This document shows, piece by piece, positions 832-51,318 of a stretch of DNA of 64,000 nucleotides (the stretch's first letter is position 1; each line of letters opens with the position of its first letter). Source of the stretch: Heptranchias perlo (taxonomy: Eukaryota); NCBI RefSeq assembly GCF_035084215.1, contig NC_090351.1, positions 33,790,001-33,854,000 on the forward strand, given 5' to 3'. A program made the translations under genes and the position numbers. The notes under the pieces were generated by a model, which saw only the letters and a program-made list of their open reading frames with translations, was not told the DNA's origin and searched no databases.

Positions 832-1155
832 CGTAAGATATTTGTAGTCGTAAGTTAAACCTTGGATCGATGCCAGATTGTTCAATACCACAGCTGTACC
901 ATCCTGTATCTCCCGAGCGAAGAGCCTTCATAGTAACAACGAATATTCCTTCTCTCTTGTTATCTGTGATTGACATTCTTCCTCGCTGTCCATCTTGCTC
1001 ACTTGTTTTTACTAAAACTGAACAACTACTAGTCCAGCCATGACACCAGTATTTCACATATGACCAGTACGTATGTTTGTCATAGTGACAGTCTATTGTG
1101 ATCGCTCTTCCCACAACTCCATTTACATTTTTTTTTGCCCACAATGCACCTGAAA
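832..1155 (-). CDS. Receptor copy 0, exon 2: CD300/pIgR/TREM-type Ig V domain (remaining exons lie left of the window)
   Basis: Acceptor tcttctcag|; VSGALWAKK..ITIDCHY..VKYWCHGWTSSCSVLV..DTGWYSCG; donor G|GTACTT; phase 1/1, 324 bp. Confidence 0.92.
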
Positions 1156-1299
1156 CTGAGAAGACAGCACTTCAGAAATTGAACAGGAAGTAACTGCTAA
1201 ATACAAACAGATACATTTTTATAAGAACTTCCACTGTGTACAGAAGAATCTCTCCACTACGTCCATTAATACAGTTGAATTCCTTGTAGTTTGTGATGA

Positions 1300-1392
1300 A
1301 AGAAAGAACATTAATTTCGTGCCTTATCACATCCTCACGATGTCCTAAAGCACTTCCCAGCCAGTGAATTACTTTTGAAGTGTCGTCACTAT
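1300..1392 (-). mobile_element. DeuSINE 3' tail fragment (in each unit)
   Basis: Reverse complement of cacttcaaaagtaattcactggctgggaagtgctttaggacatcgtgagg, homologous to the SINE tail at 12240-12326. Confidence 0.65.
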
Positions 1393-1400
1393 CTTTGAAC

Positions 1401-2005
1401 AAGAACAGCAACAACAGCTTGCATTTATATAGCACCGATAACATAGAAACTCAAGCTAAGACATAATCAAAATTAAATGGATACTGAGATAAGGCAGGAG
1501 ATATTAGGAGAGGTGTGTAACAGCCTGGTCAAAGAGGTGGGTTTTAAGGAGGGTCTTAAAGGAGGAGAGGTGGAGGATTTCATACAGGGAATTTCACAAT
1601 GTGGTGCCAAGTTGGTTGAAGGCAAACCCATTCCCACTAATGGTGGGGCAAAGGTAGGGATCGATGCACAAAAGATCACAGTCAGCGGAAGGGAGATTTC
1701 GTGAGGGAGTTGGTGAGTAGGGCTGAAGGAGGTTACTCAAATAGTGAGGGGCCATTTCATGAAGGAATTTAAACACAAGGATGAAAGTTTGAAGTTTTGA
1801 GAGACCGAAAGCCAATGTAGGTCAGCAAGGACAGGGGTGATAGATGAGCGGGACCTGATAGCAGAATTTTGGATGCGTTGATGTTTATGGTGGGTGCAAG
1901 AGGGGAGGCAGGCCAGGAGAACATTGGAATAGTTCAATCTGGAGGCAACAAAGACATGGATGTGGGTTTCAGCAGCAGACGGGTGGAAGTAGGCAGACTT
2001 TGTAA
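1401..2005 (-). mobile_element. L2-clade LINE 3' fragment in receptor intron 1 (in each unit)
   Basis: Translation AETHIHVFVASRLNYSN..LACLP..IQNSA..SITPVLADLHWL..LVFKFLH..APHYLSNLL is the L2 ORF2 C-terminus; (TTG)n-type tail. Confidence 0.85.
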
Positions 2006-2054
2006 TGAACTTGATATCTGCAGGAAAAGTGCTCCAGATTGTCTGTAAGATCAA

Positions 2055-2785
2055 TGAGCAAGACCTCGAGGGTATTAATCACAGGATTATTCCCAGTGCC
2101 ACATGGTAATCAGTATAAGAATAGTAAGATAAGAGAAGTAATTTTGTGACTGGAGAGATGGTTCAGAAGAAAAGGGTTCATATTCCTGGCACCTTGGGAC
2201 CAGGTGTGGAAGAGGAGCATCCTGTAGAGGACGGGAGGAGTTTACTTGAACAGCACCAAGACCAATGGCCTTGCTGGGAGAGGAACTCATGCTGTGGGCA
2301 AAGAGTTTACTCCCAAATGGCAGGAGGGTGGTTAAAAATAAGCTGAAGAGGCACGAGGAAGAGGACGGAGGGCTGAGGATATAGGATAGATAAAAGAGGG
2401 AAATGGGGAGGGGAAAGAGATCAGATCAGAAAGAGGAAGGTTTGAAAAGAGAAAGATTGCCATAACAGAGGCGTGCTTCAGTTGAATGTTCAAAAAGTAT
2501 TCTGCATAAAATTGGCAAGTTGAGGCACAAATATTTATGGGGAGGTTTGATATAATAGAATTAACAGACTCATGGCTTAGAGTAGGGTGAGACTGGGAGT
2601 TTAACATTGCTGGTTACAAAATAGATTAGTCCAAAATGGTGGCGGGGAGGCAGTATTAATCAGAAATTCCATTACAGCATTAAATCATAAAGATGATATG
2701 GGGCTGAATCTACTTGGTTAGAGTTAAAGAAGAAGAAGAAAACGGTTCCTTATTAGGAGAGTAATATCGACCAAACAGTGGGCGT
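2055..2785 (+). mobile_element. Degenerate CR1 LINE fragment (ORF1 esterase end + APE endonuclease start; in each unit)
   Basis: Broken frames resembling TSRVLITGLFPVP, DSWL..DWEFNIAGY, GGGEAVLIR, ESTWLELK, LLGExYRPNSG. Confidence 0.7.
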
Positions 2786-3243
2786 CCTCTCCCAGTGAGG
2801 AACAGTTTCACTGACAGAGCCTCGTTAAACAATATTTCATCGGCTGTACTTTAAATAACGAAAACAGTTGCAAATTTGTGACATTTTCTATTTGAGGGAT
2901 TATTACCACTGCAGTCTTCAGTGTATATTGGCCTTCAGACTACATTATAAAAGTCACTTTTTTACGGATTAAAACTGGTTGCCTTTGCATTTTGATTGTT
3001 GCTTTTGCAGCTTTTAAAAAAATGAAATGGAACCTTTATTTTCCACTCACAATTAAGAATGCATTTTCGTCTGGCAAATAATACAGTGAAAAAGAGATAC
3101 AAGACTATATGCAAATGTACTTCTGCTGAGTATTTTGTGCCTTTACATTTCTCCAAATATTTAAACATCTCTGCTGTTTAAACCATACACGAGACTTAAA
3201 CTAACACTGATTATCTGAATATCCAGCTCTGGCGGTCACTCAC

Positions 3244-3280
3244 CGGGCAGGGAACAAATGAGAAGAATCAGAATCCGCAT
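3244..3280 (-). CDS. Receptor copy 0 (partial gene), exon 1: signal peptide MRILILLICSLP
   Basis: ATG at 3280, hydrophobic leader, phase-1 donor G|GTGAGT at 3243. Confidence 0.85.
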
Positions 3281-11441: not shown

Positions 11442-11489
11442 TCATCTTGCCACGTTGGCCGACCTGTGGTGATCTGATTCGTTGAGTAG
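11442..11489 (-). CDS. Receptor copy A, exon 6: short cytoplasmic tail LLNESDHHRSANVAR*
   Basis: Acceptor attttcactttcag|, phase 0, TGA at 11444-11442, AATAAA ~90 nt downstream. Confidence 0.65.
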   Translation of the reverse strand, partial: LLNESDHHRSANVAR

Positions 11490-11910
11490 CTGAAAGTGAA
11501 AATATTTAATGCATCAGATTCATTGATATTGAGAAGTGTGCGTTATTTTACATGTCAGTTCTGAACAGAATTCTATCTGAAACTGTTAACAAGTTGAGGA
11601 AAGGCCTGCGATAGACTGGAGCTGTGTTGAGATCACACTCCTCCCTCCCCCATCACCATTGCACGTGTGCTGGGAAAAGGTGTCAGTTGTGCCCCTTTTG
11701 CTGGAACACCATTTTCTCACATTCAACATGGGTTTTTCTGCAACCGTGACGGTGGACAGTTGACATCAGAAAACGGTTGACTTTATTAAATATATTTTAG
11801 ATAGTCCAGTTGAGGTTCCCAGCAACAATAGAATTAGGTCTGTGTCTGAGCACCCTGGTGCTCGACTGGATAAACAAATCAGAATGGAATCTTTTCTTGA
11901 CTGTATTAGT

Positions 11911-12326
11911 ACAGCTTGGCTCAGTGGTAGCACTCTCATTTCAGATGTCAAAAGGTTGTGGGTTCAAGTCCCAGTCCAGGGACTTCAGCACATAATCTAG
12001 GCTGGCACTTCAGCACTGTGCTGAGGGAGTGCTCTATTGTCAGATGAAACGTTAATGGAGGGCCCCATCTGTTTGTTCAGGTGGACAGAAAAGATTCCAT
12101 GACACTATTTGAAGAAGAGCAAAGGAGTTCTCCCAATATTCTGGCCAAAACAGATTAACCGGTCATTTATCTCATCTGCTGTGTTTGGGACCTTTCTGTG
12201 TGCAAATTGTCTGCCACTTTTGTCTCCATAACAACAGTAACACTTCAAAAGTAACTCATTGGATGTAAAGAGATTGGGACATCTTGAAGATATAAAAGAG
12301 TCTATATAAACGCAGGTTCTTTCTTT
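11911..12326 (+). mobile_element. Near full-length tRNA-derived DeuSINE (SacSINE1-like) in receptor intron 5 (also +16780, +33707, +50633)
   Basis: A box TGGCTCAGTGG, B box GGTTCAAGTCC, Deu-like core (ctatttgaagaagagc..gctgtgtgcaaatt), tail ..tatataaacgcaggttctttcttt. Confidence 0.85.
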
Positions 12327-12394
12327 ATTATATCTGTGACAAATATTTTTGAAAGAATTTTTGGAGTGTTTCATACAAAGTCCTTAATCCTTAC

Positions 12395-12485
12395 CTTAGT
12401 TTTTTTCGTACACGTTGTGACCGAAACAGTACAAATCACCAGGAGAGCAAAGAGCACCCAGCGTAGCACACTCCACACAATGTAA
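12395..12485 (-). CDS. Receptor copy A, exon 5: transmembrane SYIVWSVLRWVLFALLVICTVSVTTCTKKTK
   Basis: Acceptor tccccttttgctcag|, hydrophobic run followed by basic stop-transfer residues, donor AAG|GTAAGG; phase 2/0. Confidence 0.88.
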
Positions 12486-13343
12486 CTGAGCAAAAGGGGA
12501 GAAATACAAAATCATTCACAAGAAACGGGATTGCTTTGTGTCTGAAACATTTATCTCCTGTTTACACTGTAATCTTAGTATTTTGTATCAATGTAAAGCC
12601 GCAGAACCAAGGGACTTTAGCTGGGAAACTAAACTGTTGTTTGACTTATGGAGGAAAGTCAACTTTGTGATCATTAGATAAAGGCCAAATGAAGCAAAGT
12701 TCATTAACATGTCCACAATGTGCAGCTATAAAGGCACGGCACAATTTTATAATTGAGGACTTTATAAAAGTGACTGACCATCTGCCTGGGGCCATGTAAC
12801 AGTGGTAATATGTCTCCTCAGGGATGATCACAATAACATCAACCTGCAACTGCTCATCTGCACCTTCTTTCAGGCAATTGCTGAGCAGCTGGAAACAGGC
12901 AGCCTTCCCGTTCTCTCAGTTTGGAAACAGTGTATAACATGGGCAAACTGAGAAGGTGAAAATGACGGAGAATGCAAATGCCACTCCAGAATAGTGGAAG
13001 GCAAACCAGCATTGCTGGGGTTTGGCAAGTACAACTCATCTCACGCCATGAGATTAGGTTAGCGGTAAAGTAATGAAGGTGAATAATGCAAACAGCACCA
13101 CCTGAGGGGTGGCAAAATGGAGGTGCTTACTTCTTATTCTGATTCTCCACCAACAAAAATAGCACCTTTGTTCGGAAGCCAACACAACAGCATGATGTAA
13201 ATCCAGCCACCATTTCCATTATGGTGAGTTATAGCCTGGATGAGTAAATGTTTGTGAACCCTTGTGCCAAATTTCTTAAAGAACATTTATTCTCTCAGAT
13301 GGAAACAGTGCCAATCAAAACACCAGCAATGAGAACATTGTAC

Positions 13344-13467
13344 CTTTTGCTGGCAGATGTGGAACCTGAAGATGTGGTTCGATTTTCAGTGGAATTGATA
13401 TTTTTACTTGTGGAACATGGAGTTGTTGGTGACACTTTTGAATAAACTTCACATTCATATACAAGTC
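13344..13467 (-). CDS. Receptor copy A, exon 4: Ser/Thr-rich stalk GLVYECEVYSKVSPTTPCSTSKNINSTENRTTSSGSTSASK
   Basis: Acceptor cccttgcctcaatag|, open frame, donor AG|GTACAA; phase 1 in / phase 2 out fits both neighbours. Confidence 0.8.
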
Positions 13468-14253
13468 CTATTGAGGCAAGGGAATAAAGTTTAGATTCAC
13501 CTGATTTTCACTTGTGGTCAACCTAGAGAACACTATTGTTAAAAGGAACCTCAGTACTTGAGTAAAATCCTGGTTGGTATATTGGATTTGGATGCTTTCA
13601 TTTCTGTGTAATTTCCCCTCTCTGATAGCAAGGAGAGATGCTGCTAACACCTGGCAGCGGCCCATTTTTAGTGATATTTCAGTTATTTCCCCATATCCGA
13701 GTGTTTGCATTACAGAATTACTATTGGGACAGTTAAAGATCTCGGGTTGGTGGGTCTACAAACCAGATATTCCCTTTTTTGCCCCACGCAAACGTAAAGG
13801 AAAGTTAGAGCCAGGGAATGATCTCTGCCACCACCGGAAAGTGTATTCCTGGGCGCCTAGCAACCGCGATGCTGCCCTGGAGCGATGTCCTCAGTGGAAT
13901 AGGAACATCAGCAGTGCATTGAGCTCATCGGGAAATATTAGACCAATAATTACTGTTGTCGATATTAGTAGACAAGCAGTTAAAATTCGTAAGGCATTCC
14001 TCGTTTAAAAGAATGTTTCATTCAGAACAGCAGATAAAGGAATGTCACACGCACACATTAAACAGTCGCCTGCTAATACTGACAACGGTCAATTCTAGCC
14101 TTTTGGGGTCAGTTTCCTGAGCTTGCCAAGTGATGGGAAACCTCAGCCACCGGGAGTGGATATCGCATATCAGGGACAGGCTCGCAAACAGATGCAATAG
14201 ACATTAGTTTTAAAAATTCAGTTCCCATATTGTTTGTTTAAAGTAACACTTAC

Positions 14254-14577
14254 CAATGCTGCTGATTCGAGCCACATAACTGCAGTTTTTCTCTGATCTG
14301 TTCCAGACTGACACATCAACCATTTCACTGGATTTTCCTCCATTATTATTTGAGGCTCTGCAGTAATATTGATGATGAACTTGGGTGAAGGAAGAACATT
14401 GTAGATCCAGTTTATCAGATTCAGAGATCGTTAAATCTTCAGACGTGGCCTTTTTATACCATGTGTACCGAATGGGAAGGGACCCTTGGACAGACTCACA
14501 GGAGACTGACACTGAGCCCCCAAAACATGAGGCACTTGATGGTGATAAAAATCGAAGTACAGGAACAGACACAGATT
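14254..14577 (-). CDS. Receptor copy A, exon 3: Ig C2-type (FcR-like/PECAM-like) domain
   Basis: Acceptor ttctttcccacag|; ESVSVPVLRF..GGSVSVSCESVQGSLPIRYTWYK..YYCRASN; donor G|GTAAGT; phase 1/1, 324 bp. Confidence 0.92.
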
Positions 14578-14829
14578 CTGTGGGAAAGAAACAAACATTC
14601 AGACACTGACTGACTCTGCTTCTTGCACTGGATCCAAACTATCCCTGATCTTTAATGGGATGAGAGAGATTAAATAGCCTTCAAAAGCACCTGAAAGAAG
14701 AGGAACAATTGTGCAAGTTTTTGCTTTTTTTGAAAAACAGCAGCATAATTGATCCAGATGGAAATAATCTTCTCATCATTTTTGCTTTGATGAAACCCAT
14801 CATGAATTTGCCAGGTTGGAGCAGTCTAT

Positions 14830-15413
14830 GGGGTAGAAATTGGGATGTGTTTTGTTCCAATTCCGGGCGTAAAATGGTGCAACGTATACCAATTGCTGGG
14901 CGTGAAGTCCTGTGCCCGATTTGCATTGGGGCATGCCCACTGCCCTATTGGTCGACTCTGTTTTTAGGCGTCCCTAGTGGTCGCCTGAAAGCAGCGTTGC
15001 ATTAATTTAAATATGCAAATAAGGGTCCTGGGCATGTTTTAGGAACCTTCTGCAAAATTTTTGAGAAACTAGGCAGAGCATACACCGTGAATGTTCTGAC
15101 GAGCTTACCCAGCTCTACAGTGGCCTAACCAGAGTTCCTTAAAGAGACCCGTGGAGATCACTGAAGAATCGCGACTGCGCTCGGTCCCCCAGCGTTTTCC
15201 ACCGGTGTCCAAGCAGGACTTTCCTGAGGGCCGCTGGTGAATAGACAGCAGGCTCAAATTTGATCCCCAATGTTGGAAGTAGCCAGCAGCTCGCCTCTAT
15301 TATCAAAATGAGGCCAATTTCAGATGAGCCTCAGGCCTCTGGCTTCTTGGGGCGCGCTTTCAGCCTGTCGCTTATTTTGGGTCCAGAAATGAGCCCAAAA
15401 GAATTTCCAACCC
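14830..15413. mobile_element. Harbinger-type MITE in receptor intron 2 (584 bp; also +16780, +33707)
   Basis: TIRs ggggtagaaatt / aatttccaaccc with a TAT direct repeat on both sides. Confidence 0.65.
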
Positions 15414-16266
15414 TATTGTTTTCAGGTGGGGGTTTGGTCGAATGTTGAATGCATTTCCAGGAATGGCCTGACCCAGGTCCAGTTTGTACCAGAACTCCCT
15501 CATATGGGAATTCTGCAACCAACATCGAAAAATCAAATGCTTTCCAATGTTCATTTTACTTCTGAGACAAAACCAGAATAAGCTTTCCTGTAACTCAGCC
15601 AGGCCCTGCCATTTTGGAACCTCACCAGCACATCTACATCTCCATGTCTCTCCATCCTGCGAGCAGCCTGAACTACCATGTCTAATATCAGAACATAGCA
15701 GGGCTCCAGATCAGGAGAGCAGTAATGATACTGGGGATGTGTCAATTTGAAAATCAGGGCTAACAATTTCTCTCAGTGGTAGGTTACCAGCCTCCAATGC
15801 TGTTTAATTGTTTGACACTCGAACATGAGCTAGTTGGAGAAAGTCCGAGAAACCACAGCAGAATATGAGTGCAAAAAACTGGAGATTTCTACACATGTTC
15901 TGTGGCTTTAGACAGGGAGAGTAATTATGATTGGTTTCAGCGAACTGCAGCTGAAAAGCAACCCTTTATCTCAGTTTTATTGGAGCAGCCAAAGCACAAA
16001 GGTGACCAGCTTGACACTTTCAATGAGAATTGTCAGGTCTTCAGTGCTGTTGCGGCCACACCCTGTTCTCAGAAACTGATTAGGACAAAATTTGCTTTGT
16101 GACTGGACAGTCTCTCTTTGAAATGTTACTGCTTGCCAGCCTGTCCCTCAGCACTTCCCTACTCACCCACCCAGATCCATTGAAAAATCAATAGGAGGTG
16201 TAGAGGATGTAGAAGATTGTATTTAGTATTTGATCCTTCAGGAGGTTTGCTTAGGAGGAAGATAAT

Positions 16267-17010
16267 GGGCCATAATTTGCTGTGGCAGAGCATCCAACGG
16301 TGTTTGCCGTTGGTTAGACTTGCCCTTGCTCGTTTAGGTTTCAAATTGTTTGCGGGTAAGTTACTGAAAGTGCGAGTTGATAACATCGCAGCGAGGGAAA
16401 CAGGGCATCTGGGACCTGAGTGGACAGAGCAAGAAACCATGTATCTCCTTCACCAGTCAGATTCAAGGATTTTGAAATAATCAATGCAAGGATTGAGAAG
16501 GAAGTGTAAATGACAATGGATTGAATGTCCAATCAGGTACAGAAAGAGAAATAAAGAGAGGGAAAGAAGGATTGGATGAAGAGAGAAAGAAAAAGGAAAT
16601 GTACATTTTTAAAATCTCCAACTACAATTAAAACCTGAAGGATTGAAACTCCACACTTGTAAGTTTTCAGTGCCAAAGAGGTTGCTTGGCAGTAAATAAC
16701 ACTTATCACGTTGTTAAAAGGGTACTCAGACTTGAAATGACTTGACTCAACTTACTGTGGAGAGTTTAATTTGTATCTACCGTGCAAATACAGCAACTTC
16801 ATGCCGTTCAATGTATTTCAATGGTGCGGCAGACAGCAAGATGCCCTTTTTGTGAAGCTAAGGGCAGAATGGTGCAACTTGGACAGCAACTTTTGGATTT
16901 CTGTGTTTAACCAGGCATCTGCCCCTCGCCTGAATTTGCTGCACCATTTGCGTGTAAATAATGGCGATCGCCATTAGTCTCACCGCTATTTTGACAGCAA
17001 AATCTGGCCC
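16267..17010. mobile_element. Harbinger-type MITE in receptor intron 2 (744 bp; right end also at 1-230; other copies 33047-33790, 49974-50717)
   Basis: TIRs gggccataatttgctgt / acagcaaaatctggccc (15/17 match); flanks aat/aac. Confidence 0.7.
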
Positions 17011-17611
17011 AACGTGACAACATGAATAAAGAGGCTTCTTTTACCATCAAGAGAGTGATCTAGCTTTTCAATTTTAAGTTTAGCTCGCTTGTAAAGTTGA
17101 ACTGTATTGTGCTGACCTAAGTATCTGGTTGATTCTGTATGCCTCCCATCAGATCAGGAAACCTACAAAAATCTGTTACGCTCTTGTGGATTGATTCCAT
17201 TTTTAGTGTTTTCTAGGTATTTATCCCATTAAAGACTACTTGCTTCTTACTGCTTTTGTTATTGTCTTTCTATTAGTTTTTGGCCTGAATGTAAACATCT
17301 GACAGTGTGAAACTTGATACAGTTCAGAGACAGGAAGATGTGTTGAGCATCCATGTGAGGTCTGGTGTAATACACTGCAGTTAAAGTAACTGTTGGTCCC
17401 ATAATACGTGAAATTTTTGGTTGGATAGTTGGACAGGCCACGAATTGCGTGTGAGCAACACGAGTCGTATTTCCAGACCTCTGCCCACTTCCTGGAAGAC
17501 TCTGCACTGCTGCGGAGCCTCGGAAAATCAGTGCTGTATTTTTCTTCCCAGATGAAACATTGAACAGACATTTTAGTCGTGTATAATAAAGTATATCACT
17601 GAGAAAAGTAC

Positions 17612-17935
17612 CGTAAGATATTTGTAGTCGTAAGTTAAACCTTGGATCGATGCCAGATTGTTCAATACCACAGCTGTACCATCCTGTATCTCCCGAGCGA
17701 AGAGCCTTCATAGTAACAACGAATATTCCTTCTCTCTTGTTATCTGTGATTGACATTCTTCCTCGCTGTCCATCTTGCTCACTTGTTTTTACTAAAACTG
17801 AACAACTACTAGTCCAGCCATGACACCAGTATTTCACATATGACCAGTACGTATGTTTGTCATAGTGACAGTCTATTGTGATCGCTCTTCCCACAACTCC
17901 ATTTACATTTTTTTTTGCCCACAATGCACCTGAAA
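17612..17935 (-). CDS. Receptor copy A, exon 2: CD300/pIgR-like V domain
   Basis: Canonical Cys-Trp-DxGxYxC plus the extra KYWC...C pair typical of CD300/pIgR/TREM V domains; AG/GT boundaries. Confidence 0.92.
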
Positions 17936-20023
17936 CTGAGAAGACAACACTTCAGAAATTGAACAGGAAGTAACTGCTAAATACAAACAGATACATTTTT
18001 ATAAGAACTTCCACTGTGTACAGAAGAATCTCTCCACTACGTCCATTAATACAGTTGAATTCCTTGTAGTTTGTGATGAAAGAAAGAACATTAATTTCGT
18101 GCCTTATCACATCCTCACGATGTCCTAAAGCACTTCCCAGCCAGTGAATTACTTTTGAAGTGTCGTCACTATCTTTGAACAAGAACAGCAACAACAGCTT
18201 GCATTTATATAGCACCGATAACATAGAAACTCAAGCTAAGACATAATCAAAAGTAAATGGATACTGAGATAAGGCAGGAGATATTAGGAGAGGTGTGTAA
18301 CAGCCTGGTCAAAGAGGTGGGTTTTAAGGAGGGTCTTAAAGGAGGAGAGGTGGAGGATTTCATACAGGGAATTTCACAATGTGGTGCCAAGTTGGTTGAA
18401 GGCAAACCCATTCCCACTAATGGTGGGGCAAAGGTAGGGATCGATGCACAAAAGATCACAGTCAGCGGAAGGGAGATTTCGTGAGGGAGTTGGTGAGTAG
18501 GGCTGAAGGAGGTTACTCAAATAGTGAGGGGCCATTTCATGAAGGAATTTAAACACAAGGATGAAAGTTTGAAGTTTTGAGAGACCGAAAGCCAATGTAG
18601 GTCAGCAAGGACAGGGGTGATAGATGAGCGGGACCTGATAGCAGAATTTTGGATGCGTTGATGTTTATGGTGGGTGCAAGAGGGGAGGCAGGCCAGGAGA
18701 ACATTGGAATAGTTCAATCTGGAGGCAACAAAGACATGGATGTGGGTTTCAGCAGCAGACGGGTGGAAGTAGGCAGACTTTGTAATGAACTTGATATCTG
18801 CAGGAAAAGTGCTCCAGATTGTCTGTAAGATCAATGAGCAAGACCTCGAGGGTATTAATCACAGGATTATTCCCAGTGCCACATGGTAATCAGTATAAGA
18901 ATAGTAAGATAAGAGAAGTAATTTTGTGACTGGAGAGATGGTTCAGAAGAAAAGGGTTCATATTCCTGGCACCTTGGGACCAGGTGTGGAAGAGGAGCAT
19001 CCTGTAGAGGACGGGAGGAGTTTACTTGAACAGCGCCAAGACCAATGGCCTTGCTGGGAGAGGAACTCATGCTGTGGGCAAAGAGTTTACTCCCAAATGG
19101 CAGGAGGGTGGTTAAAAATAAGCTGAAGAGGCACGAGGAAGAGGACGGAGGGCTGAGGATATAGGATAGATAAAAGAGGGAAATGGGGAGGGGAAAGAGA
19201 TCAGATCAGAAAGAGGAAGGTTTGAAAAGAGAAAGATTGCCATAACAGAGGCGTGCTTCAGTTGAATGTTCAAAAAGTATTCTGCATAAAATTGGCAAGT
19301 TGAGGCACAAATATTTATGGGGAGGTTTGATATAATAGAATTAACAGACTCATGGCTTAGAGTAGGGTGAGACTGGGAGTTTAACATTGCTGGTTACAAA
19401 ATAGATTAGTCCAAAATGGTGGCGGGGAGGCAGTATTAATCAGAAATTCCATTACAGCATTAAATCATAAAGATGATATGGGGCTGAATCTACTTGGTTA
19501 GAGTTAAAGAAGAAGAAGAAAACGGTTCCTTATTAGGAGAGTAATATCGACCAAACAGTGGGCGTCCTCTCCCAGTGAGGAACAGTTTCACTGACAGAGC
19601 CTCGTTAAACAATATTTCATCGGCTGTACTTTAAATAACGAAAACAGTTGCAAATTTGTGACATTTTCTATTTGAGGGATTATTACCACTGCAGTCTTCA
19701 GTGTATATTGGACTTCAGACTACATTATAAAAGTCACTTTTTTACGGATTAAAACTGGTTGCCTTTGCATTTTGATTGTTGCTTTTGCAGCTTTTAAAAA
19801 AATGAAATGGAACCTTTATTTTCCACTCACAATTAAGAATGCATTTTCGTCTGGCAAATAATACAGTGAAAAAGAGATACAAGACTATATGCAAATGTAC
19901 TTCTGCTGAGTATTTTGTGCCTTTACATTTCTCCAAATATTTAAACATCTCTGCTGTTTAAACCATACACGAGACTTAAACTAACACTGATTATCTGAAT
20001 ATCCAGCTCTGGCGGTCACTCAC

Positions 20024-20060
20024 CGGGCAGGGAACAAATGAGAAGAATCAGAATCCGCAT
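20024..20060 (-). CDS. Receptor copy A (11442-20060), exon 1: signal peptide
   Basis: Same as 3244-3280 at +16780. Confidence 0.85.
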
Positions 20061-28221: not shown

Positions 28222-28269
28222 TCATCTTGCCACGTTGGCCGACCTGTGGTGATCTGATTCGTTGAGTAG
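28222..28269 (-). CDS. Receptor copy B, exon 6: cytoplasmic tail
   Basis: Copy of 11442-11489. Confidence 0.65.
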   Translation of the reverse strand, partial: LLNESDHHRSANVAR

Positions 28270-29174
28270 CTGAAAGTGAAAATATTTAATGCATCAGATT
28301 CATTGATATTGAGAAGTGTGCGTTATTTTACATGTCAGTTCTGAACAGAATTCTATCTGAAACTGTTAACAAGTTGAGGAAAGGCCTGCGATAGACTGGA
28401 GCTGTGTTGAGATCACACTCCTCCCTCCCCCATCACCATTGCACGTGTGCTGGGAAAAGGTGTCAGTTGTGCCCCTTTTGCTGGAACACCATTTTCTCAC
28501 ATTCAACATGGGTTTTTCTGCAACCGTGACGGTGGACAGTTGACATCAGAAAACGGTTGACTTTATTAAATATATTTTAGATAGTCCAGTTGAGGTTCCC
28601 AGCAACAATAGAATTAGGTCTGTGTCTGAGCACCCTGGTGCTCGACTGGATAAACAAATCAGAATGGAATCTTTTCTTGACTGTATTAGTACAGCTTGGC
28701 TCAGTGGTAGCACTCTCATTTCAGATGTCAAAAGGTTGTGGGTTCAAGTCCCAGTCCAGGGACTTCAGCACATAATCTAGGCTGGCACTTCAGCACTGTG
28801 CTGAGGGAGTGCTCTATTGTCAGATGAAACGTTAATGGAGGGCCCCATCTGTTTGTTCAGGTGGACAGAAAAGATTCCATGACACTATTTGAAGAAGAGC
28901 AAAGGAGTTCTCCCAATATTCTGGCCAAAACAGATTAACCGGTCATTTATCTCATCTGCTGTGTTTGGGACCTTTCTGTGTGCAAATTGTCTGCCACTTT
29001 TGTCTCCATAACAACAGTAACACTTCAAAAGTAACTCATTGGATGTAAAGAGATTGGGACATCTTGAAGATATAAAAGAGTCTATATAAACGCAGGTTCT
29101 TTCTTTATTATATCTGTGACAAATATTTTTGAAAGAATTTTTGGAGTGTTTCATACAAAGTCCTTAATCCTTAC

Positions 29175-29265
29175 CTTAGTTTTTCTCGTACACGTTGTGA
29201 CCGAAACAGTACAAATCACCAGGAGAGCAAAGAGCACCCAGCGTAGCACACTCCACACAATGTAA
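29175..29265 (-). CDS. Receptor copy B, exon 5: transmembrane (..TCTRKTK allele)
   Basis: Copy of 12395-12485 with one K/R substitution. Confidence 0.88.
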
Positions 29266-30123
29266 CTGAGCAAAAGGGGAGAAATACAAAATCATTCACA
29301 AGAAACGGGATTGCTTTGTGTCTGAAACATTTATCTCCTGTTTACACTGTAATCTTAGTATTTTGTATCAATGTAAAGCCGCAGAACCAAGGGACTTTAG
29401 CTGGGAAACTAAACTGTTGTTTGACTTATGGAGGAAAGTCAACTTTGTGATCATTAGATAAAGGCCAAATGAAGCAAAGTTCATTAACATGTCCACAATG
29501 TGCAGCTATAAAGGCACGGCACAATTTTATAATTGAGGACTTTATAAAAGTGACTGACCATCTGCCTGGGGCCATGTAACAGTGGTAATATGTCTCCTCA
29601 GGGATGATCACAATAACATCAACCTGCAACTGCTCATCTGCACCTTCTTTCAGGCAATTGCTGAGCAGCTGGAAACAGGCAGCCTTCCCGTTCTCTCAGT
29701 TTGGAAACAGTGTATAACATGGGCAAACTGAGAAGGTGAAAATGACGGAGAATGCAAATGCCACTCCAGAATAGTGGAAGGCAAACCAGCATTGCTGGGG
29801 TTTGGCAAGTACAACTCATCTCACGCCATGAGATTAGGTTAGCGGTAAAGTAATGAAGGTGAATAATGCAAACAGCACCACCTGAGGGGTGGCAAAATGG
29901 AGGTGCTTACTTCTTATTCTGATTCTCCACCAACAAAAATAGCACCTTTGTTCGGAAGCCAACACAACAGCATGATGTAAATCCAGCCACCATTTCCATT
30001 ATGGTGAGTTATAGCCTGGATGAGTAAATGTTTGTGAACCCTTGTGCCAAATTTCTTAAAGAACATTTATTCTCTCAGATGGAAACAGTGCCAATCAAAA
30101 CACCAGCAATGAGAACATTGTAC

Positions 30124-30247
30124 CTTTTGCTGGCAGATGTGGAACCTGAAGATGTGGTTCGATTTTCAGTGGAATTGATATTTTTACTTGTGGAACATGG
30201 AGTTGTTGGTGACACTTTTGAATAAACTTCACATTCATATACAAGTC
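30124..30247 (-). CDS. Receptor copy B, exon 4: stalk
   Basis: Copy of 13344-13467 at +16780. Confidence 0.8.
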
Positions 30248-31033
30248 CTATTGAGGCAAGGGAATAAAGTTTAGATTCACCTGATTTTCACTTGTGGTCA
30301 ACCTAGAGAACACTATTGTTAAAAGGAACCTCAGTACTTGAGTAAAATCCTGGTTGGTATATTGGATTTGGATGCTTTCATTTCTGTGTAATTTCCCCTC
30401 TCTGATAGCAAGGAGAGATGCTGCTAACACCTGGCAGCGGCCCATTTTTAGTGATATTTCAGTTATTTCCCCATATCCGAGTGTTTGCATTACAGAATTA
30501 CTATTGGGACAGTTAAAGATCTCGGGTTGGTGGGTCTACAAACCAGATATTCCCTTTTTTGCCCCACGCAAACGTAAAGGAAAGTTAGAGCCAGGGAATG
30601 ATCTCTGCCACCACCGGAAAGTGTATTCCTGGGCGCCTAGCAACCGCGATGCTGCCCTGGAGCGATGTCCTCAGTGGAATAGGAACATCAGCAGTGCATT
30701 GAGCTCATCGGGAAATATTAGACCAATAATTACTGTTGTCGATATTAGTAGACAAGCAGTTAAAATTCGTAAGGCATTCCTCGTTTAAAAGAATGTTTCA
30801 TTCAGAACAGCAGATAAAGGAATGTCACACGCACACATTAAACAGTCGCCTGCTAATACTGACAACGGTCAATTCTAGCCTTTTGGGGTCAGTTTCCTGA
30901 GCTTGCCAAGTGATGGGAAACCTCAGCCACCGGGAGTGGATATCGCATATCAGGGACAGGCTCGCAAACAGATGCAATAGACATTAGTTTTAAAAATTCA
31001 GTTCCCATATTGTTTGTTTAAAGTAACACTTAC

Positions 31034-31357
31034 CAATGCTGCTGATTCGAGCCACATAACTGCAGTTTTTCTCTGATCTGTTCCAGACTGACACATCAAC
31101 CATTTCACTGGATTTTCCTCCATTATTATTTGAGGCTCTGCAGTAATATTGATGATGAACTTGGGTGAAGGAAGAACATTGTAGATCCAGTTTATCAGAT
31201 TCAGAGATCGTTAAATCTTCAGACGTGGCCTTTTTATACCATGTGTACTGAATGGGAAGGGACCCTTGGACAGACTCACAGGAGACTGACACTGAGCCCC
31301 CAAAACATGAGGCACTTGATGGTGATAAAAATCGAAGTACAGGAACAGACACAGATT
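31034..31357 (-). CDS. Receptor copy B, exon 3: C2 domain (GSLPIQY allele)
   Basis: ORF 30990..31352; same splice sites as copy A. Confidence 0.92.
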
Positions 31358-34300
31358 CTGTGGGAAAGAAACAAACATTCAGACACTGACTGACTCTGCT
31401 TCTTGCACTGGATCCAAACTATCCCTGATCTTTAATGGGATGAGAGAGATTAAATAGCCTTCAAAAGCACCTGAAAGAAGAGGAACAATTGTGCAAGTTT
31501 TTGCTTTTTTTGAAAAACAGCAGCATAATTGATCCAGATGGAAATAATCTTCTCATCATTTTTGCTTTGATGAAACCCATCATGAATTTGCCAGGTTGGA
31601 GCAGTCTATGGGGTAGAAATTGGGATGTGTTTTGTTCCAATTCCGGGCGTAAAATGGTGCAACGTATACCAATTGCTGGGCGTGAAGTCCTGTGCCCGAT
31701 TTGCATTGGGGCATGCCCACTGCCCTATTGGTCGACTCTGTTTTTAGGCGTCCCTAGTGGTCGCCTGAAAGCAGCGTTGCATTAATTTAAATATGCAAAT
31801 AAGGGTCCTGGGCATGTTTTAGGAACCTTCTGCAAAATTTTTGAGAAACTAGGCAGAGCATACACCGTGAATGTTCTGACGAGCTTACCCAGCTCTACAG
31901 TGGCCTAACCAGAGTTCCTTAAAGAGACCTGTGGAGATCACTGAAGAATCGCGACTGCGCTCGGTCCCCCAGCGTTTTCCACCGGTGTCCAAGCAGGACT
32001 TTCCTGAGGGCCGCTGGTGAATAGACAGCAGGCTCAAATTTGATCCCCAATGTTGGAAGTAGCCAGCAGCTCGCCTCTATTATCAAAATGAGGCCAATTT
32101 CAGATGAGCCTCAGGCCTCTGGCTTCTTGGGGCGCGCTTTCAGCCTGTCGCTTATTTTGGGTCCAGAAATGAGCCCAAAAGAATTTCCAACCCTATTGTT
32201 TTCAGGTGGGGGTTTGGTCGAATGTTGAATGCATTTCCAGGAATGGCCTGACCCAGGTCCAGTTTGTACCAGAACTCCCTCATATGGGAATTCTGCAACC
32301 AACATCGAAAAATCAAATGCTTTCCAATGTTCATTTTACTTCTGAGACAAAACCAGAATAAGCTTTCCTGTAACTCAGCCAGGCCCTGCCATTTTGGAAC
32401 CTCACCAGCACATCTACATCTCCATGTCTCTCCATCCTGCGAGCAGCCTGAACTACCATGTCTAATATCAGAACATAGCAGGGCTCCAGATCAGGAGAGC
32501 AGTAATGATACTGGGGATGTGTCAATTTGAAAATCAGGGCTAACAATTTCTCTCAGTGGTAGGTTACCAGCCTCCAATGCTGTTTAATTGTTTGACACTC
32601 GAACATGAGCTAGTTGGAGAAAGTCCGAGAAACCACAGCAGAATATGAGTGCAAAAAACTGGAGATTTCTACACATGTTCTGTGGCTTTAGACAGGGAGA
32701 GTAATTATGATTGGTTTCAGCGAACTGCAGCTGAAAAGCAACCCTTTATCTCAGTTTTATTGGAGCAGCCAAAGCACAAAGGTGACCAGCTTGACACTTT
32801 CAATGAGAATTGTCAGGTCTTCAGTGCTGTTGCGGCCACACCCTGTTCTCAGAAACTGATTAGGACAAAATTTGCTTTGTGACTGGACAGTCTCTCTTTG
32901 AAATGTTACTGCTTGCCAGCCTGTCCCTCAGCACTTCCCTACTCACCCACCCAGATCCATTGAAAAATCAATAGGAGGTGTAGAGGATGTAGAAGATTGT
33001 ATTTAGTATTTGATCCTTCAGGAGGTTTGCTTAGGAGGAAGATAATGGGCCATAATTTGCTGTGGCAGAGCATCCAACGGTGTTTGCCGTTGGTTAGACT
33101 TGCCCTTGCTCGTTTAGGTTTCAAATTGTTTGCGGGTAAGTTACTGAAAGTGCGAGTTGATAACATCGCAGCGAGGGAAACAGGGCATCTGGGACCTGAG
33201 TGGACAGAGCAAGAAACCATGTATCTCCTTCACCAGTCAGATTCAAGGATTTTGAAATAATCAATGCAAGGATTGAGAAGGAAGTGTAAATGACAATGGA
33301 TTGAATGTCCAATCAGGTACAGAAAGAGAAATAAAGAGAGGGAAAGAAGGATTGGATGAAGAGAGAAAGAAAAAGGAAATGTACATTTTTAAAATCTCCA
33401 ACTACAATTAAAACCTGAAGGATTGAAACTCCACACTTGTAAGTTTTCAGTGCCAAAGAGGTTGCTTGGCAGTAAATAACACTTATCACGTTGTTAAAAG
33501 GGTACTCAGACTTGAAATGACTTGACTCAACTTACTGTGGAGAGTTTAATTTGTATCTACCGTGCAAATACAGCAACTTCATGCCGTTCAATGTATTTCA
33601 ATGGTGCGGCAGACAGCAAGATGCCCTTTTTGTGAAGCTAAGGGCAGAATGGTGCAACTTGGACAGCAACTTTTGGATTTCTGTGTTTAACCAGGCATCT
33701 GCCCCTCGCCTGAATTTGCTGCACCATTTGCGTGTAAATAATGGCGATCGCCATTAGTCTCACCGCTATTTTGACAGCAAAATCTGGCCCAACGTGACAA
33801 CATGAATAAAGAGGCTTCTTTTACCATCAAGAGAGTGATCTAGCTTTTCAATTTTAAGTTTAGCTTGCTTGTAAAGTTGAACTGTATTGTGCTGACCTAA
33901 GTATCTGGTTGATTCTGTATGCCTCCCATCAGATCAGGAAACCTACAAAAATCTGTTACGCTCTTGTGGATTGATTCCATTTTTAGTGTTTTCTAGGTAT
34001 TTATCCCATTAAAGACTACTTGCTTCTTACTGCTTTTGTTATTGTCTTTCTATTAGTTTTTGGCCTGAATGTAAACATCTGACAGTGTGAAACTTGATAC
34101 AGTTCAGAGACAGGAAGATGTGTTGAGCATCCATGTGAGGTCTGGTGTAATACACTGCAGTTAAAGTAACTGTTGGTCCCATAATACGTGAAATTTTTGG
34201 TTGGATAGTTGGACAGGCCACGAATTGCGTGTGAGCAACACGAGTCGTATTTCCAGACCTCTGCCCACTTCCTGGAAGACTCTGCACTGCTGCGGAGCCT

Positions 34301-34391
34301 CGGAAAATCAGTGCTGTATTTTTCTTCCCAGATGAAACATTGAACAGACATTTTAGTCGTGTATAATAAAGTATATCACTGAGAAAAGTAC

Positions 34392-34715
34392 CGTAAGATA
34401 TTTGTAGTCGTAAGTTAAACCTTGGATCGATGCCAGATTGTTCAATACCACAGCTGTACCATCCTGTATCTCCCGAGCGAAGAGCCTTCATAGTAACAAC
34501 GAATATTCCTTCTCTCTTGTTATCTGTGATTGACATTCTTCCTCGCTGTCCATCTTGCTCACTTGTTTTTACTAAAACTGAACAACTACTAGTCCAGCCA
34601 TGACACCAGTATTTCACATATGACCAGTACGTATGTTTGTCATAGTGACAGTCTATTGTGATCGCTCTTCCCACAACTCCATTTACATTTTTTTTTGCCC
34701 ACAATGCACCTGAAA
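34392..34715 (-). CDS. Receptor copy B, exon 2: V domain
   Basis: Translation identical to other copies (ORF 34039..34704). Confidence 0.92.
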
Positions 34716-36803
34716 CTGAGAAGACAGCACTTCAGAAATTGAACAGGAAGTAACTGCTAAATACAAACAGATACATTTTAATAAGAACTTCCACTGTGTA
34801 CAGAAGAATCTCTCCACTACGTCCATTAATACAGTTGAATTCCTTGTAGTTTGTGATGAAAGAAAGAACATTAATTTCGTGCCTTATCACATCCTCACGA
34901 TGTCCTAAAGCACTTCCCAGCCAGTGAATTACTTTTGAAGTGTCGTCACTATCTTTGAACAAGAACAGCAACAACAGCTTGCATTTATATAGCACCGATA
35001 ACATAGAAACTCAAGCTAAGACATAATCAAAATTAAATGGATACTGAGATAAGGCAGGAGATATTAGGAGAGGTGTGTAACAGCCTGGTCAAAGAGGTGG
35101 GTTTTAAGGAGGGTCTTAAAGGAGGAGAGGTGGAGGATTTCATACAGGGAATTTCACAATGTGGTGCCAAGTTGGTTGAAGGCAAACCCATTCCCACTAA
35201 TGGTGGGGCAAAGGTAGGGATCGATGCACAAAAGATCACAGTCAGCGGAAGGGAGATTTCGTGAGGGAGTTGGTGAGTCGGGCTGAAGGAGGTTACTCAA
35301 ATAGTGAGGGGCCATTTCATGAAGGAATTTAAACACAAGGATGAAAGTTTGAAGTTTTGAGAGACCGAAAGCCAATGTAGGTCAGCAAGGACAGGGGTGA
35401 TAGATGAGCGGGACCTGATAGCAGAATTTTGGATGCGTTGATGTTTATGGTGGGTGCAAGAGGGGAGGCAGGCCAGGAGAACATTGGAATAGTTCAATCT
35501 GGAGGCAACAAAGACATGGATGTGGGTTTCAGCAGCAGACGGGTGGAAGTAGGCAGACTTTGTAATGAACTTGATATCTGCAGGAAAAGTGCTCCAGATT
35601 GTCTGTAAGATCAATGAGCAAGACCTCGAGGGTATTAATCACAGGATTATTCCCAGTGCCACATGGTAATCAGTATAAGAATAGTAAGATAAGAGAAGTA
35701 ATTTTGTGACTGGAGAGATGGTTCAGAAGAAAAGGGTTCATATTCCTGGCACCTTGGGACCAGGTGTGGAAGAGGAGCATCCTGTAGAGGACGGGAGGAG
35801 TTTACTTGAACAGCGCCAAGACCAATGGCCTTGCTGGGAGAGGAACTCATGCTGTGGGCAAAGAGTTTACTCCCAAATGGCAGGAGGGTGGTTAAAAATA
35901 AGCTGAAGAGGCACGAGGAAGAGGACGGAGGGCTGAGGATATAGGATAGATAAAAGAGGGAAATGGGGAGGGGAAAGAGATCAGATCAGAAAGAGGAAGG
36001 TTTGAAAAGAGAAAGATTGCCATAACAGAGGCGTGCTTCAGTTGAATGTTCAAAAAGTATTCTGCATAAAATTGGCAAGTTGAGGCACAAATATTTATGG
36101 GGAGGTTTGATATAATAGAATTAACAGACTCATGGCTTAGAGTAGGGTGAGACTGGGAGTTTAACATTGCTGGTTACAAAATAGATTAGTCCAAAATGGT
36201 GGCGGGGAGGCAGTATTAATCAGAAATTCCATTACAGCATTAAATCATAAAGATGATATGGGGCTGAATCTACTTGGTTAGAGTTAAAGAAGAAGAAGAA
36301 AACGGTTCCTTATTAGGAGAGTAATATCGACCAAACAGTGGGCGTCCTCTCCCAGTGAGGAACAGTTTCACTGACAGAGCCTCGTTAAACAATATTTCAT
36401 CGGCTGTACTTTAAATAACGAAAACAGTTGCAAATTTGTGACATTTTCTATTTGAGGGATTATTACCACTGCAGTCTTCAGTGTATATTGGCCTTCAGAC
36501 TACATTATAAAAGTCACTTTTTTACGGATTAAAACTGGTTGCCTTTGCATTTTGATTGTTGCTTTTGCAGCTTTTAAAAAAATGAAATGGAACCTTTATT
36601 TTCCACTCACAATTAAGAATGCATTTTCGTCTGGCAAATAATACAGTGAAAAAGAGATACAAGACTATATGCAAATGTACTTCTGCTGAGTATTTTGTGC
36701 CTTTACATTTCTCCAAATATTTAAACATCTCTGCTGTTTAAACCATACACGAGACTTAAACTAACACTGATTATCTGAATATCCAGCTCTGGCGGTCACT
36801 CAC

Positions 36804-36840
36804 CGGGCAGGGAACAAATGAGAAGAATCAGAATCCGCAT
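36804..36840 (-). CDS. Receptor copy B (28222-36840), exon 1: signal peptide
   Basis: Same as 3244-3280 at +33560. Confidence 0.85.
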
Positions 36841-45148: not shown

Positions 45149-45196
45149 TCATCTTGCCACGTTGGCCGACCTGTGGTGATCTGATTCGTTGAGTAG
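45149..45196 (-). CDS. Receptor copy C, exon 6: cytoplasmic tail
   Basis: Copy of 11442-11489 at +33707. Confidence 0.65.
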   Translation of the reverse strand, partial: LLNESDHHRSANVAR

Positions 45197-46101
45197 CTGA
45201 AAGTGAAAATATTTAATGCATCAGATTCATTGATATTGAGAAGTGTGCGTTATTTTACATGTCAGTTCTGAACAGAATTCTATCTGAAACTGTTAACAAG
45301 TTGAGGAAAGGCCTGCGATAGACTGGAGCTGTGTTGAGATCACACTCCTCCCTCCCCCATCACCATTGCACGTGTGCTGGGAAAAGGTGTCAGTTGTGCC
45401 CCTTTTGCTGTGACACCATTTTCTCACATTCAACATGGGTTTTTCTGCAACCGTGACGGTGGACAGTTGACATCAGAAAACGGTTGACTTTATTAAATAT
45501 ATTTTAGATAGTCCAGTTGAGGTTCCCAGCAACAATAGAATTAGGTCTGTGTCTGAGCACCCTGGTGCTCGACTGGATAAACAAATCAGAATGGAATCTT
45601 TTCTTGACTGTATTAGTACAGCTTGGCTCAGTGGTAGCACTCTCATTTCAGATGTCAAAAGGTTGTGGGTTCAAGTCCCAGTCCAGGGACTTCAGCACAT
45701 AATCTAGGCTGGCACTTCAGCACTGTGCTGAGGGAGTGCTCTATTGTCAGATGAAACGTTAATGGAGGGCCCCATCTGTTTGTTCAGGTGGACAGAAAAG
45801 ATTCCATGACACTATTTGAAGAAGAGCAAAGGAGTTCTCCCAATATTCTGGCCAAAACAGATTAACCGGTCATTTATCTCATCTGCTGTGTTTGGGACCT
45901 TTCTGTGTGCAAATTGTCTGCCACTTTTGTCTCCATAACAACAGTAACACTTCAAAAGTAACTCATTGGATGTAAAGAGATTGGGACATCTTGAAGATAT
46001 AAAAGAGTCTATATAAACGCAGGTTCTTTCTTTATTATATCTGTGACAAATATTTTTGAAAGAATTTTTGGAGTGTTTCATACAAAGTCCTTAATCCTTA
46101 C

Positions 46102-46192
46102 CTTAGTTTTTCTCGTACACGTTGTGACCGAAACAGTACAAATCACCAGGAGAGCAAAGAGCACCCAGCGTAGCACACTCCACACAATGTAA
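46102..46192 (-). CDS. Receptor copy C, exon 5: transmembrane
   Basis: Copy of 12395-12485 at +33707 (R allele). Confidence 0.88.
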
Positions 46193-47050
46193 CTGAGCAA
46201 AAGGGGAGAAATACAAAATCATTCACAAGAAACGGGATTGCTTTGTGTCTGAAACATTTATCTCCTGTTTACACTGTAATCTTAGTATTTTGTATCAATG
46301 TAAAGCCGCAGAACCAAGGGACTTTAGCTGGGAAACTAAACTGTTGTTTGACTTATGGAGGAAAGTCAACTTTGTGATCATTAGATAAAGGCCAAATGAA
46401 GCAAAGTTCATTAACATGTCCACAATGTGCAGCTATAAAGGCACGGCACAATTTTATAATTGAGGACTTTATAAAAGTGACTGACCATCTGCCTGGGGCC
46501 ATGTAACAGTGGTAATATGTCTCCTCAGGGATGATCACAATAACATCAACCTGCAACTGCTCATCTGCACCTTCTTTCAGGCAATTGCTGAGCAGCTGGA
46601 AACAGGCAGCCTTCCCGTTCTCTCAGTTTGGAAACAGTGTATAACATGGGCAAACTGAGAAGGTGAAAATGACGGAGAATGCAAATGCCACTCCAGAATA
46701 GTGGAAGGCAAACCAGCATTGCTGGGGTTTGGCAAGTACAACTCATCTCACGCCATGAGATTAGGTTAGCGGTAAAGTAATGAAGGTGAATAATGCAAAC
46801 AGCACCACCTGAGGGGTGGCAAAATGGAGGTGCTTACTTCTTATTCTGATTCTCCACCAACAAAAATAGCACCTTTGTTCGGAAGCCAACACAACAGCAT
46901 GATGTAAATCCAGCCACCATTTCCATTATGGTGAGTTATAGCCTGGATGAGTAAATGTTTGTGAACCCTTGTGCCAAATTTCTTAAAGAACATTTATTCT
47001 CTCAGATGGAAACAGTGCCAATCAAAACACCAGCAATGAGAACATTGTAC

Positions 47051-47174
47051 CTTTTGCTGGCAGATGTGGAACCTGAAGATGTGGTTCGATTTTCAGTGGA
47101 ATTGATATTTTTACTTGTGGAACATGGAGTTGTTGGTGACACTTTTGAATAAACTTCACATTCATATACAAGTC
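47051..47174 (-). CDS. Receptor copy C, exon 4: stalk
   Basis: Copy of 13344-13467 at +33707. Confidence 0.8.
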
Positions 47175-47960
47175 CTATTGAGGCAAGGGAATAAAGTTTA
47201 GATTCACCTGATTTTCACTTGTGGTCAACCTAGAGAACACTATTGTTAAAAGGAACCTCAGTACTTGAGTAAAATCCTGGTTGGTATATTGGATTTGGAT
47301 GCTTTCATTTCTGTGTAATTTCCCCTCTCTGATAGCAAGGAGAGATGCTGCTAACACCTGGCAGCGGCCCATTTTTAGTGATATTTCAGTTATTTCCCCA
47401 TATCCGAGTGTTTGCATTACAGAATTACTATTGGGACAGTTAAAGATCTCGGGTTGGTGGGTCTACAAACCAGATATTCCCTTTTTTGCCCCACGCAAAC
47501 GTAAAGGAAAGTTAGAGCCAGGGAATGATCTCTGCCACCACCGGAAAGTGTATTCCTGGGCGCCTAGCAACCGCGATGCTGCCCTGGAGCGATGTCCTCA
47601 GTGGAATAGGAACATCAGCAGTGCATTGAGCTCATCGGGAAATATTAGACCAATAATTACTGTTGTCGATATTAGTAGACAAGCAGTTAAAATTCGTAAG
47701 GCATTCCTCGTTTAAAAGAATGTTTCATTCAGAACAGCAGATAAAGGAATGTCACACGCACACATTAAACAGTCGCCTGCTAATACTGACAACGGTCAAT
47801 TCTAGCCTTTTGGGGTCAGTTTCCTGAGCTTGCCAAGTGATGGGAAACCTCAGCCACCGGGAGTGGATATCGCATATCAGGGACAGGCTCGCAAACAGAT
47901 GCAATAGACATTAGTTTTAAAAATTCAGTTCCCATATTGTTTGTTTAAAGTAACACTTAC

Positions 47961-48284
47961 CAATGCTGCTGATTCGAGCCACATAACTGCAGTTTTTCTC
48001 TGATCTGTTCCAGACTGACACATCAACCATTTCACTGGATTTTCCTCCATTATTATTTGAGGCTCTGCAGTAATATTGATGATGAACTTGGGTGAAGGAA
48101 GAACATTGTAGATCCAGTTTATCAGATTCAGAGATCGTTAAATCTTCAGACGTGGCCTTTTTATACCATGTGTACTGAATGGGAAGGGACCCTTGGACAG
48201 ACTCACAGGAGACTGACACTGAGCCCCCAAAACATGAGGCACTTGATGGTGATAAAAATCGAAGTACAGGAACAGACACAGATT
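47961..48284 (-). CDS. Receptor copy C, exon 3: C2 domain (Q allele)
   Basis: ORF 47917..48279. Confidence 0.92.
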
Positions 48285-51200: not shown

Positions 51201-51318
51201 GGAAGACTCTGCACTGCTGCGGAGCCTCGGAAAATCAGTGCTGTATTTTTCTTCCCAGATGAAACATTGAACAGACATTTTAGTCGTGTATAATAAAGTA
51301 TATCACTGAGAAAAGTAC

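Follow-up and report, generated by a model that had tools for sequence, protein, structure and literature searches.

The gene g6 and its splicing

The window analysed here is a 64,000-nucleotide stretch of the Heptranchias perlo genome (contig NC_090351.1, positions 33,790,001 to 33,854,000) and consists of an array of repeats of ~16.8-16.9 kb that are 98.5-99.5% alike. The subject of this analysis is one receptor gene of the array, g6, which almost certainly encodes a shark modular domain immune-type receptor (MDIR), with a CD300-like immunoglobulin (Ig) V domain, an FCRL-like C2 domain and an MDIR5-type, arginine-containing transmembrane (TM) helix. g6 comprises six minus-strand exons (20060-11442) with GT-AG introns and a single open frame of 315 amino acids. 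The gene ends given in a preliminary description of this DNA, an ATG at 20060 and a stop codon ending at 11442 on the minus strand, are exact. The product is a type I receptor made up of leader, V domain, C2 domain, Ser/Thr stalk, TM helix and a short tail without tyrosine.

Exon 1 (20024..20060) holds the start codon and signal peptide. Exon 2 (17612..17935) encodes the V domain of CD300/pIgR type, with the cysteine pairs Cys35-Cys101 and Cys50-Cys57, as assigned from Pfam, PDB and alignment. Exon 3 (14254..14577) encodes the C2 domain and strand 1 of an additional, predicted beta-hairpin, while exon 4 (13344..13467) encodes the second hairpin strand and the Ser/Thr-rich stalk with its N-glycosylation sequons. 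The TM helix, with Arg278 in its outer third, lies on exon 5 (12395..12485), and the coding part of exon 6 (11442..11489) supplies the 15-residue, tyrosine-free end of the tail and the stop codon. All six are on the minus strand.

Splicing was judged from Logan contigs of four public runs from one sample. None of the four is registered as RNA and their RNA nature is presumed, the evidence taken being splice joints within the contigs; the runs contain 9-12% of the sampled words, about the exonic share. Contig joints match all five predicted introns and show plus-strand CT..AC ends: exon 1-2 in two of four runs (17935-20024), exon 2-3 in four (14577-17612), exon 3-4 in four, exon 4-5 in three and exon 5-6 in four. 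The V and C2 exons are thus spliced together in every run, as the preliminary description had supposed. Exons 1, 2, 4 and 6 are identical among the copies in the window, so the contigs report splicing of the array and not which copy is spliced. Compared with the V exon, one contig is a perfect match and three show 5-6 differences, below the 11-21 seen in the divergent assembled copies; these could be alleles or mosaic contigs.

Domain relationships and MDIR membership

The V domain carries the KYWC-x6-C pair (Cys50, Cys57) in addition to the canonical Cys35 and Cys101, and matches the Pfam V-set (E 6.6e-11); its top single-domain hits in the PDB are mouse CD300lf (E 1e-19), human CD300f, CD300a and pIgR D1. 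The C2 domain matches Pfam Ig_2 (E 8.2e-07), with FCRL5 and FCRL4 as best PDB matches, and contains all the motifs on which it had first been called an FCRL-type domain. The initial assignment of domain 1 as a CD300/pIgR-type V domain with a second disulfide likewise agrees with Pfam, PDB and the modelled fold. Within C2 there are two extra cysteines, Cys138 and Cys181; all 45 proteins aligned (45 of 45) have Cys181.

The structure used is an alignment-based model of P0082, a paralog with immunoreceptor tyrosine-based inhibitory motifs (ITIMs), for which a single-sequence fold reached a mean predicted local distance difference test score (pLDDT) of 39. The alignment-based model has pLDDT mostly >85 across both domains. 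Its V domain lies closest to CD300lf (Z 20.0, root-mean-square deviation (rmsd) 1.3, 106 aligned residues, 39% identity), ahead of pIgR D1 (Z 16.3, rmsd 1.9). Also predicted in the P0082 model is the two-strand hairpin behind C2, split over exons 3 and 4 (window 14254-14290 and 13440-13467) and including Cys219 and Cys234.

Each domain has close relatives in other receptors that differ in their overall layout. CD300lf/CD300f (PDB 1zox, 5ffl, 2nms) share the V fold, the second disulfide and the Gly and Asp of the calcium loop; CD300s, however, are single V domains with no C2, whereas g6 has a C2 exon spliced behind the V exon. The pIgR, FcalphamuR and FcmuR group has a homologous V domain with the KxWC motif, but g6 lacks the CDR1 (complementarity-determining region 1) motif of pIgR D1, has no run of V domains and has a short tail. 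FCRL5 and FCRL4 share the GSLPI-x-Y motif of C2. FCRLs are all-C2 receptors, unlike g6 with its N-terminal V-set domain and one C2 that bears two extra cysteines and a predicted C-terminal hairpin.

Cannon et al. reportedly described the skate MDIRs in 2006, the hybrid of V and C2 being said to be their hallmark. NCBI models labelled Heptranchias perlo match the g6 V exon at 100% identity. Its identity to skate MDIR2, MDIR3 and MDIR5 is 61, 58 and 60%, respectively, and that of the C2 exon to MDIR5 is 58%. A quick tree of 70 V domains, built on few columns and without mammalian rows, places the window V in a 21-row clade (SH-like approximate likelihood ratio test 94) that also contains all six of the skate MDIR V domains and receptors of shark, ray and chimaera origin. 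The features that define MDIRs are found here together: a homologous V domain, its joining to a C2 domain of FcR-homolog type, and a multigene set with charged-TM and ITIM forms. PMC3031540 presents MDIRs as skate and zebrafish multigene families, with activating as well as inhibitory members, that resemble CD300, TREM, FCAR and pIgR. The MDIR lead of the preliminary description therefore held, by the 58-61% V identity, the common V clade and the MDIR2-like V-C2 order.

Skate MDIR5 (Raja/Rostroraja eglanteria, ABC86800.1; P0081) has, like g6, an Arg-Trp TM helix and a short tyrosine-free tail, with 47% identity over 300 residues and 47% over TM and tail alone (E 1e-10). It differs in having two modules, V-C2-V-C2, where g6 has one, and in its shorter Ser/Thr stalk and a CDR1-like loop one residue shorter. 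Skate MDIR2 (P0105; 49.8% over 293 aligned residues) and chimaera MDIR2 (P0280; 43.5% over 260 residues) have the single V-C2 ectodomain of g6; unlike g6, MDIR2 has a neutral TM helix and a long tail with tyrosine motifs, and its local equivalent is the neighbour P0082. The suggestion that the hybrid may be an undescribed subtype mostly fell away for this reason, since characterised receptors of largely the same architecture exist: MDIR2 for the ectodomain and MDIR5 for the Arg-TM and tail. The one-module V-C2-Arg-TM form is absent among the three skate MDIRs compared (MDIR2, 3 and 5; MDIR1 and MDIR4 left out). One V, one C2 and an Arg helix occur in eight of the first 150 proteins collected and in three of 124 added later, from Chiloscyllium (two species), Hemiscyllium, Amblyraja, Mobula, Pristis and Scyliorhinus. 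At least seven further shark and ray species share the layout by sequence comparison, and it is common in elasmobranch gene models; g6 belongs to an already known family and is not a new kind of receptor.

The tandem array, its annotation and its neighbours

The window holds further tandem copies of g6, all on the minus strand. g5 (28222..36840) is a complete six-exon gene with 9 substitutions relative to g6 over 8.6 kb, and g4 (45149..53767) is another with 47. Exons 1-2 of g7 lie at 832..3280, the remainder being left of the window, and the 3' exons of g3 lie at 62075..64000, its V exon being right of the window. The whole cluster occupies ~170 kb of a single strand (contig C30, 33.91 to 33.74 Mb) and contains ten genes, in the order divergent V-C2-Arg gene, g1 (V-C2-V-C2-Arg), g2-g8 (V-C2-Arg) and g9. 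It thus holds eight Arg-TM genes (g1-g8), one divergent Arg-TM gene and one ITIM-type gene. The last of these, g9, encodes P0082, with V-C2, a neutral TM helix and three ITIM-like motifs; its ectodomain is 91% identical to that of g6.

From g4 to g8 there is no difference between the V exons. Over 8.6 kb, the pair g4/g7 is separated by 1 base and the pair g5/g8 by 3, the members of both pairs standing three units apart. Between g4/g7 and g5/g6/g8 the count is 43-48 bases, and for g2 and g3 it is 60-228. This near-identity could stem from a very recent block duplication or from over-assembly. Should part of the five-fold identical array be an assembly artefact, there would be fewer real copies and copy number alone would be affected; the 1-base and 3-base pairs favour such an artefact, but the remaining differences leave at least five distinct Arg-TM units and the ITIM gene, and no N gap occurs in the 264 kb examined, which makes it the less probable case, with a real chance nonetheless.

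g3 differs from the other copies in its origin. Its V domain differs from that of g9 at 2 of 107 residues, each of the two differing from g6 at 10; at the base level, g3 and the ITIM gene differ at 2 of 324 V-region bases, while g3 and g6 differ at 0 of 786 bases of intron 3 and 0 of 124 of exon 4. With a V region resembling g9 and the part from intron 3 onward resembling g6, g3 is a recombinant, and the mosaic points to sequence exchange between inhibitory-type and activating-type genes. V differs more than the pooled introns for g6-g3 (Fisher p 1e-7) and g6-g9 (p 8e-5), and does not exceed them for g6-g2, g3-g9, g2-g9, g2-g3 or g6-g4. Positive selection on the V exon was considered and rejected: the excess is confined to two pairs and the divergent tract extends ~1.5 kb into both flanking introns, which is read as recombination or conversion, and the synonymous counts of 0-5 per pair are too few for a claim on the ratio of nonsynonymous to synonymous change.

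The public annotation presents these genes differently, merging three tandem genes into one 747-amino-acid protein. By diagnostic residues, NCBI model P0005 chains g5, g6 and g7, and P0008 chains g2, g3 and g4. If such models were correct, the real products would be long (V-C2)3 receptors spliced across copies, and the six-exon unit merely a module. In-frame splicing from exon 3 of one copy into exon 2 of the following one is possible, given the phase-1 symmetry of the V and C2 exons, and multi-module MDIRs do exist, namely skate MDIR3, skate MDIR5 and g1, which has no TM exon between its modules. However, each copy retains its own intact leader, stalk, TM and tail exons, the exon 3-4 joint appears in all four runs and the exon 1-2 joint in two, and no exon 3-to-exon 2 joint is found among the 15 strongest of 71 joints (the other 56 being weaker), so that long products are very improbable. 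Given the exons proper to each copy and the exon 3-to-4 joints, P0005 and P0008 are probably annotation errors and the copies separate six-exon genes. Other shark and ray models labelled 'pIgR-like', 'FCRL5-like' or 'titin-like' with 4 to 9 V-C2 modules (P0001-P0015 and similar) may also be chained tandem genes. P0126 (Rhinoraja, labelled TRIM69-like) combines RING/B-box with MDIR C2-V-C2-TM exons and is probably a fusion of neighbouring genes.

Further features were seen in and around the cluster. A ~120-base indel near the unit junction (window 9146/25926/42714-42835/59641-59762) separates 16.78 kb from 16.93 kb units. Each unit also contains a GC-rich intergenic block of ~4 kb (window 4450-9150) with decayed open frames; the eleven intergenic open frames gave no Pfam match, and the decayed frames resemble a Harbinger-type transposon. 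Left of the cluster, at C30:33570700-33692700, lie seven more divergent V exons of CD300/pIgR type without MDIR C2 exons, one of which precedes an Arg-Trp TM exon at 33687347. The outermost two, at 33572747 and 33570995, are the most divergent and by eye have a pIgR-like D strand, making them a candidate shark pIgR/FCAMR-like gene.

Signalling, ligand and meaning

Tail classes were counted in the first 150 proteins, 148 labelled shark or ray and 2 eel CD22-like. An Arg-Trp TM helix is present in 46 of them, 44 without an ITIM-like motif, and a neutral TM helix in 68, 62 with such a motif; no TM helix was called in 36. Two tail classes with near-identical ectodomains are the pattern of paired receptors. 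The Arg-Trp helix was found in sharks, rays, a chimaera and sturgeons; in the TM alignment, the invariance of Arg and Trp is by construction, the rows having been picked for the motif. In FcalphaRI, GPVI, OSCAR, PIR-A and NKp46, FcR-gamma or zeta is recruited by a TM Arg close to the outer end of the helix, which pairs with the adaptor's Asp, and g6 has the features of such receptors, an Arg in the outer third of the helix and a short tail without a tyrosine motif. The genome contains a zeta-family adaptor TM exon with its Asp. A complex prediction for the Arg-TM helix (P0021 481-515) with two copies of this exon gave 0.13 in both runs, against a mark of 0.34. Activating CD300s, whose activating and inhibitory forms lie in one cluster, mostly use a mid-TM Lys or Glu, unlike the Arg of g6.

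From sequence and by analogy, g6 is probably the activating member of a paired-receptor cluster, acting through an adaptor of FcR-gamma/zeta type. The proposed partner of Arg278 is the acidic residue in an adaptor of FcR-gamma/CD3-zeta type that carries immunoreceptor tyrosine-based activation motifs, and this pairing would activate the cell; the ITIM gene would dampen the same response, and tandem duplication with sequence exchange would prevent the two ectodomains from drifting apart. A decoy, adhesion or uptake MDIR that does not itself signal, its Arg snorkelling at the membrane surface, would also suit the tyrosine-free tail of g6 and the reported description of MDIR5 as lacking signalling motifs. 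Polar residues precede the Arg in batoid relatives, so the Arg may lie at the interface there. In g6 itself, however, Arg278 lies within the best hydrophobic window of the protein (residues 272-290), and the Arg-Trp helix occurs in sharks, rays, a chimaera and sturgeons, with an ITIM-like tail in only 2 of 46; a non-signalling role is thus unlikely. The Arg-Trp TM helix also occurs on V-only receptors, P0188 and P0246 (sturgeon), P0271 (chimaera), and P0165 and P0183 (rays), so the TM exon either predates the V-C2 combination or moves between genes.

Regarding ligands, a literature search, with most subscription journals outside its reach, found no paper on MDIR ligand or signalling. In CD300lf, calcium is held by Lys94 O, Gly96 O and Asp98, and phosphocholine and calcium are bound between the CC' and CDR3 loops (PMC6166816). 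CD300lf Gly96, Asp98, Tyr34 and Cys36-Cys44 align to g6 Gly107, Asp109, Tyr48 and Cys50-Cys57, the mapping of CD300lf 92-100 being taken from an ungapped range and not from a printed alignment. On this reading the ligand would sit in a V-domain cleft flanked by the CC' and CDR3-like loops, probably together with calcium as in CD300lf, and C2 and stalk would keep the V domain at a distance from the membrane. A membrane lipid or microbial surface bound with the help of calcium is plausible for g6 on the model and the CD300 analogy, at slightly less than even confidence.

The other ligand idea of the preliminary description was an Ig receptor for IgM, IgW or IgNAR. In such a receptor V would bind Fc like pIgR, FcalphamuR or FcmuR, or C2 would contribute. 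The CDR1 loop of pIgR D1 carries Ig binding, and its motif is missing from the g6 V domain, the pattern matching 1 of 290 family V domains; this makes Ig binding less likely. The model fold, too, ranks CD300lf over pIgR D1 by >3 Z units, and recent expansion with ectodomain exchange would be more in keeping with a variable or microbial ligand than with a host Fc. For an Ig receptor speak the homology of V to pIgR domains and FcmuR, the closeness of C2 to FCRL5 and FCRL4, and the NCBI automatic names, which label many relatives 'polymeric immunoglobulin receptor-like'. For teleosts, PMC9321927 gives IgM and IgT as ligands of pIgR, at a site that it leaves undefined. Overall, on fold and motif, Ig binding appears the weaker of the two ideas, and g6 as an Ig receptor rather improbable.

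Taken as a whole explanation, an MDIR with V, C2 and an MDIR5-type Arg helix, likely the activating member of a paired cluster, is moderately favoured. Several points weigh against it. The structure is modelled for P0082 and not for the window's protein, and the V tree is a quick one of few columns with mammalian rows left out. The sole adaptor exon found is nearer CD3-zeta than FcR-gamma, and Cannon et al. (2006, abstract) reportedly described MDIR5 as without activating or inhibitory motifs despite its Arg. At the putative ligand site, the choline pocket is partly lost (Trp89 to Ser100 and Met100 to Arg111 in g6), the CC' loop is one residue shorter and lacks the Gln41-Arg42 pair of CD300lf, the Gly and Asp of the calcium pair occur together in 111 of 290 distinct family V domains, and copy g3 has Asn in place of the calcium-site Asp.

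The discovery value is small, as the V and C2 hybrid is known from skate MDIRs and from many shark and ray gene models. The new elements are local: a corrected gene model, a recent array and a near-identical pair of activating and inhibitory type. These are of use in correcting a public annotation that chains three tandem genes into one protein, and in offering, with two V-domain residues of difference between them, an Arg-TM copy and an ITIM gene as a clean pair for tests. The array also displays raw material for MDIR modularity, with whole-gene tandem repeats, symmetric V and C2 exons and an adjoining V-C2-V-C2 gene. More tentatively, the Arg-Trp helix may be an overlooked adaptor-coupling motif, spread from chimaeras to sturgeons, that would make MDIRs paired receptors, in this shark with an activating partner recently expanded to at most eight copies, trading V domains with a single inhibitory gene and binding lipid through a CD300-type calcium site. 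If true, calcium-dependent paired lipid sensing in the style of CD300 would date to the root of jawed vertebrates.

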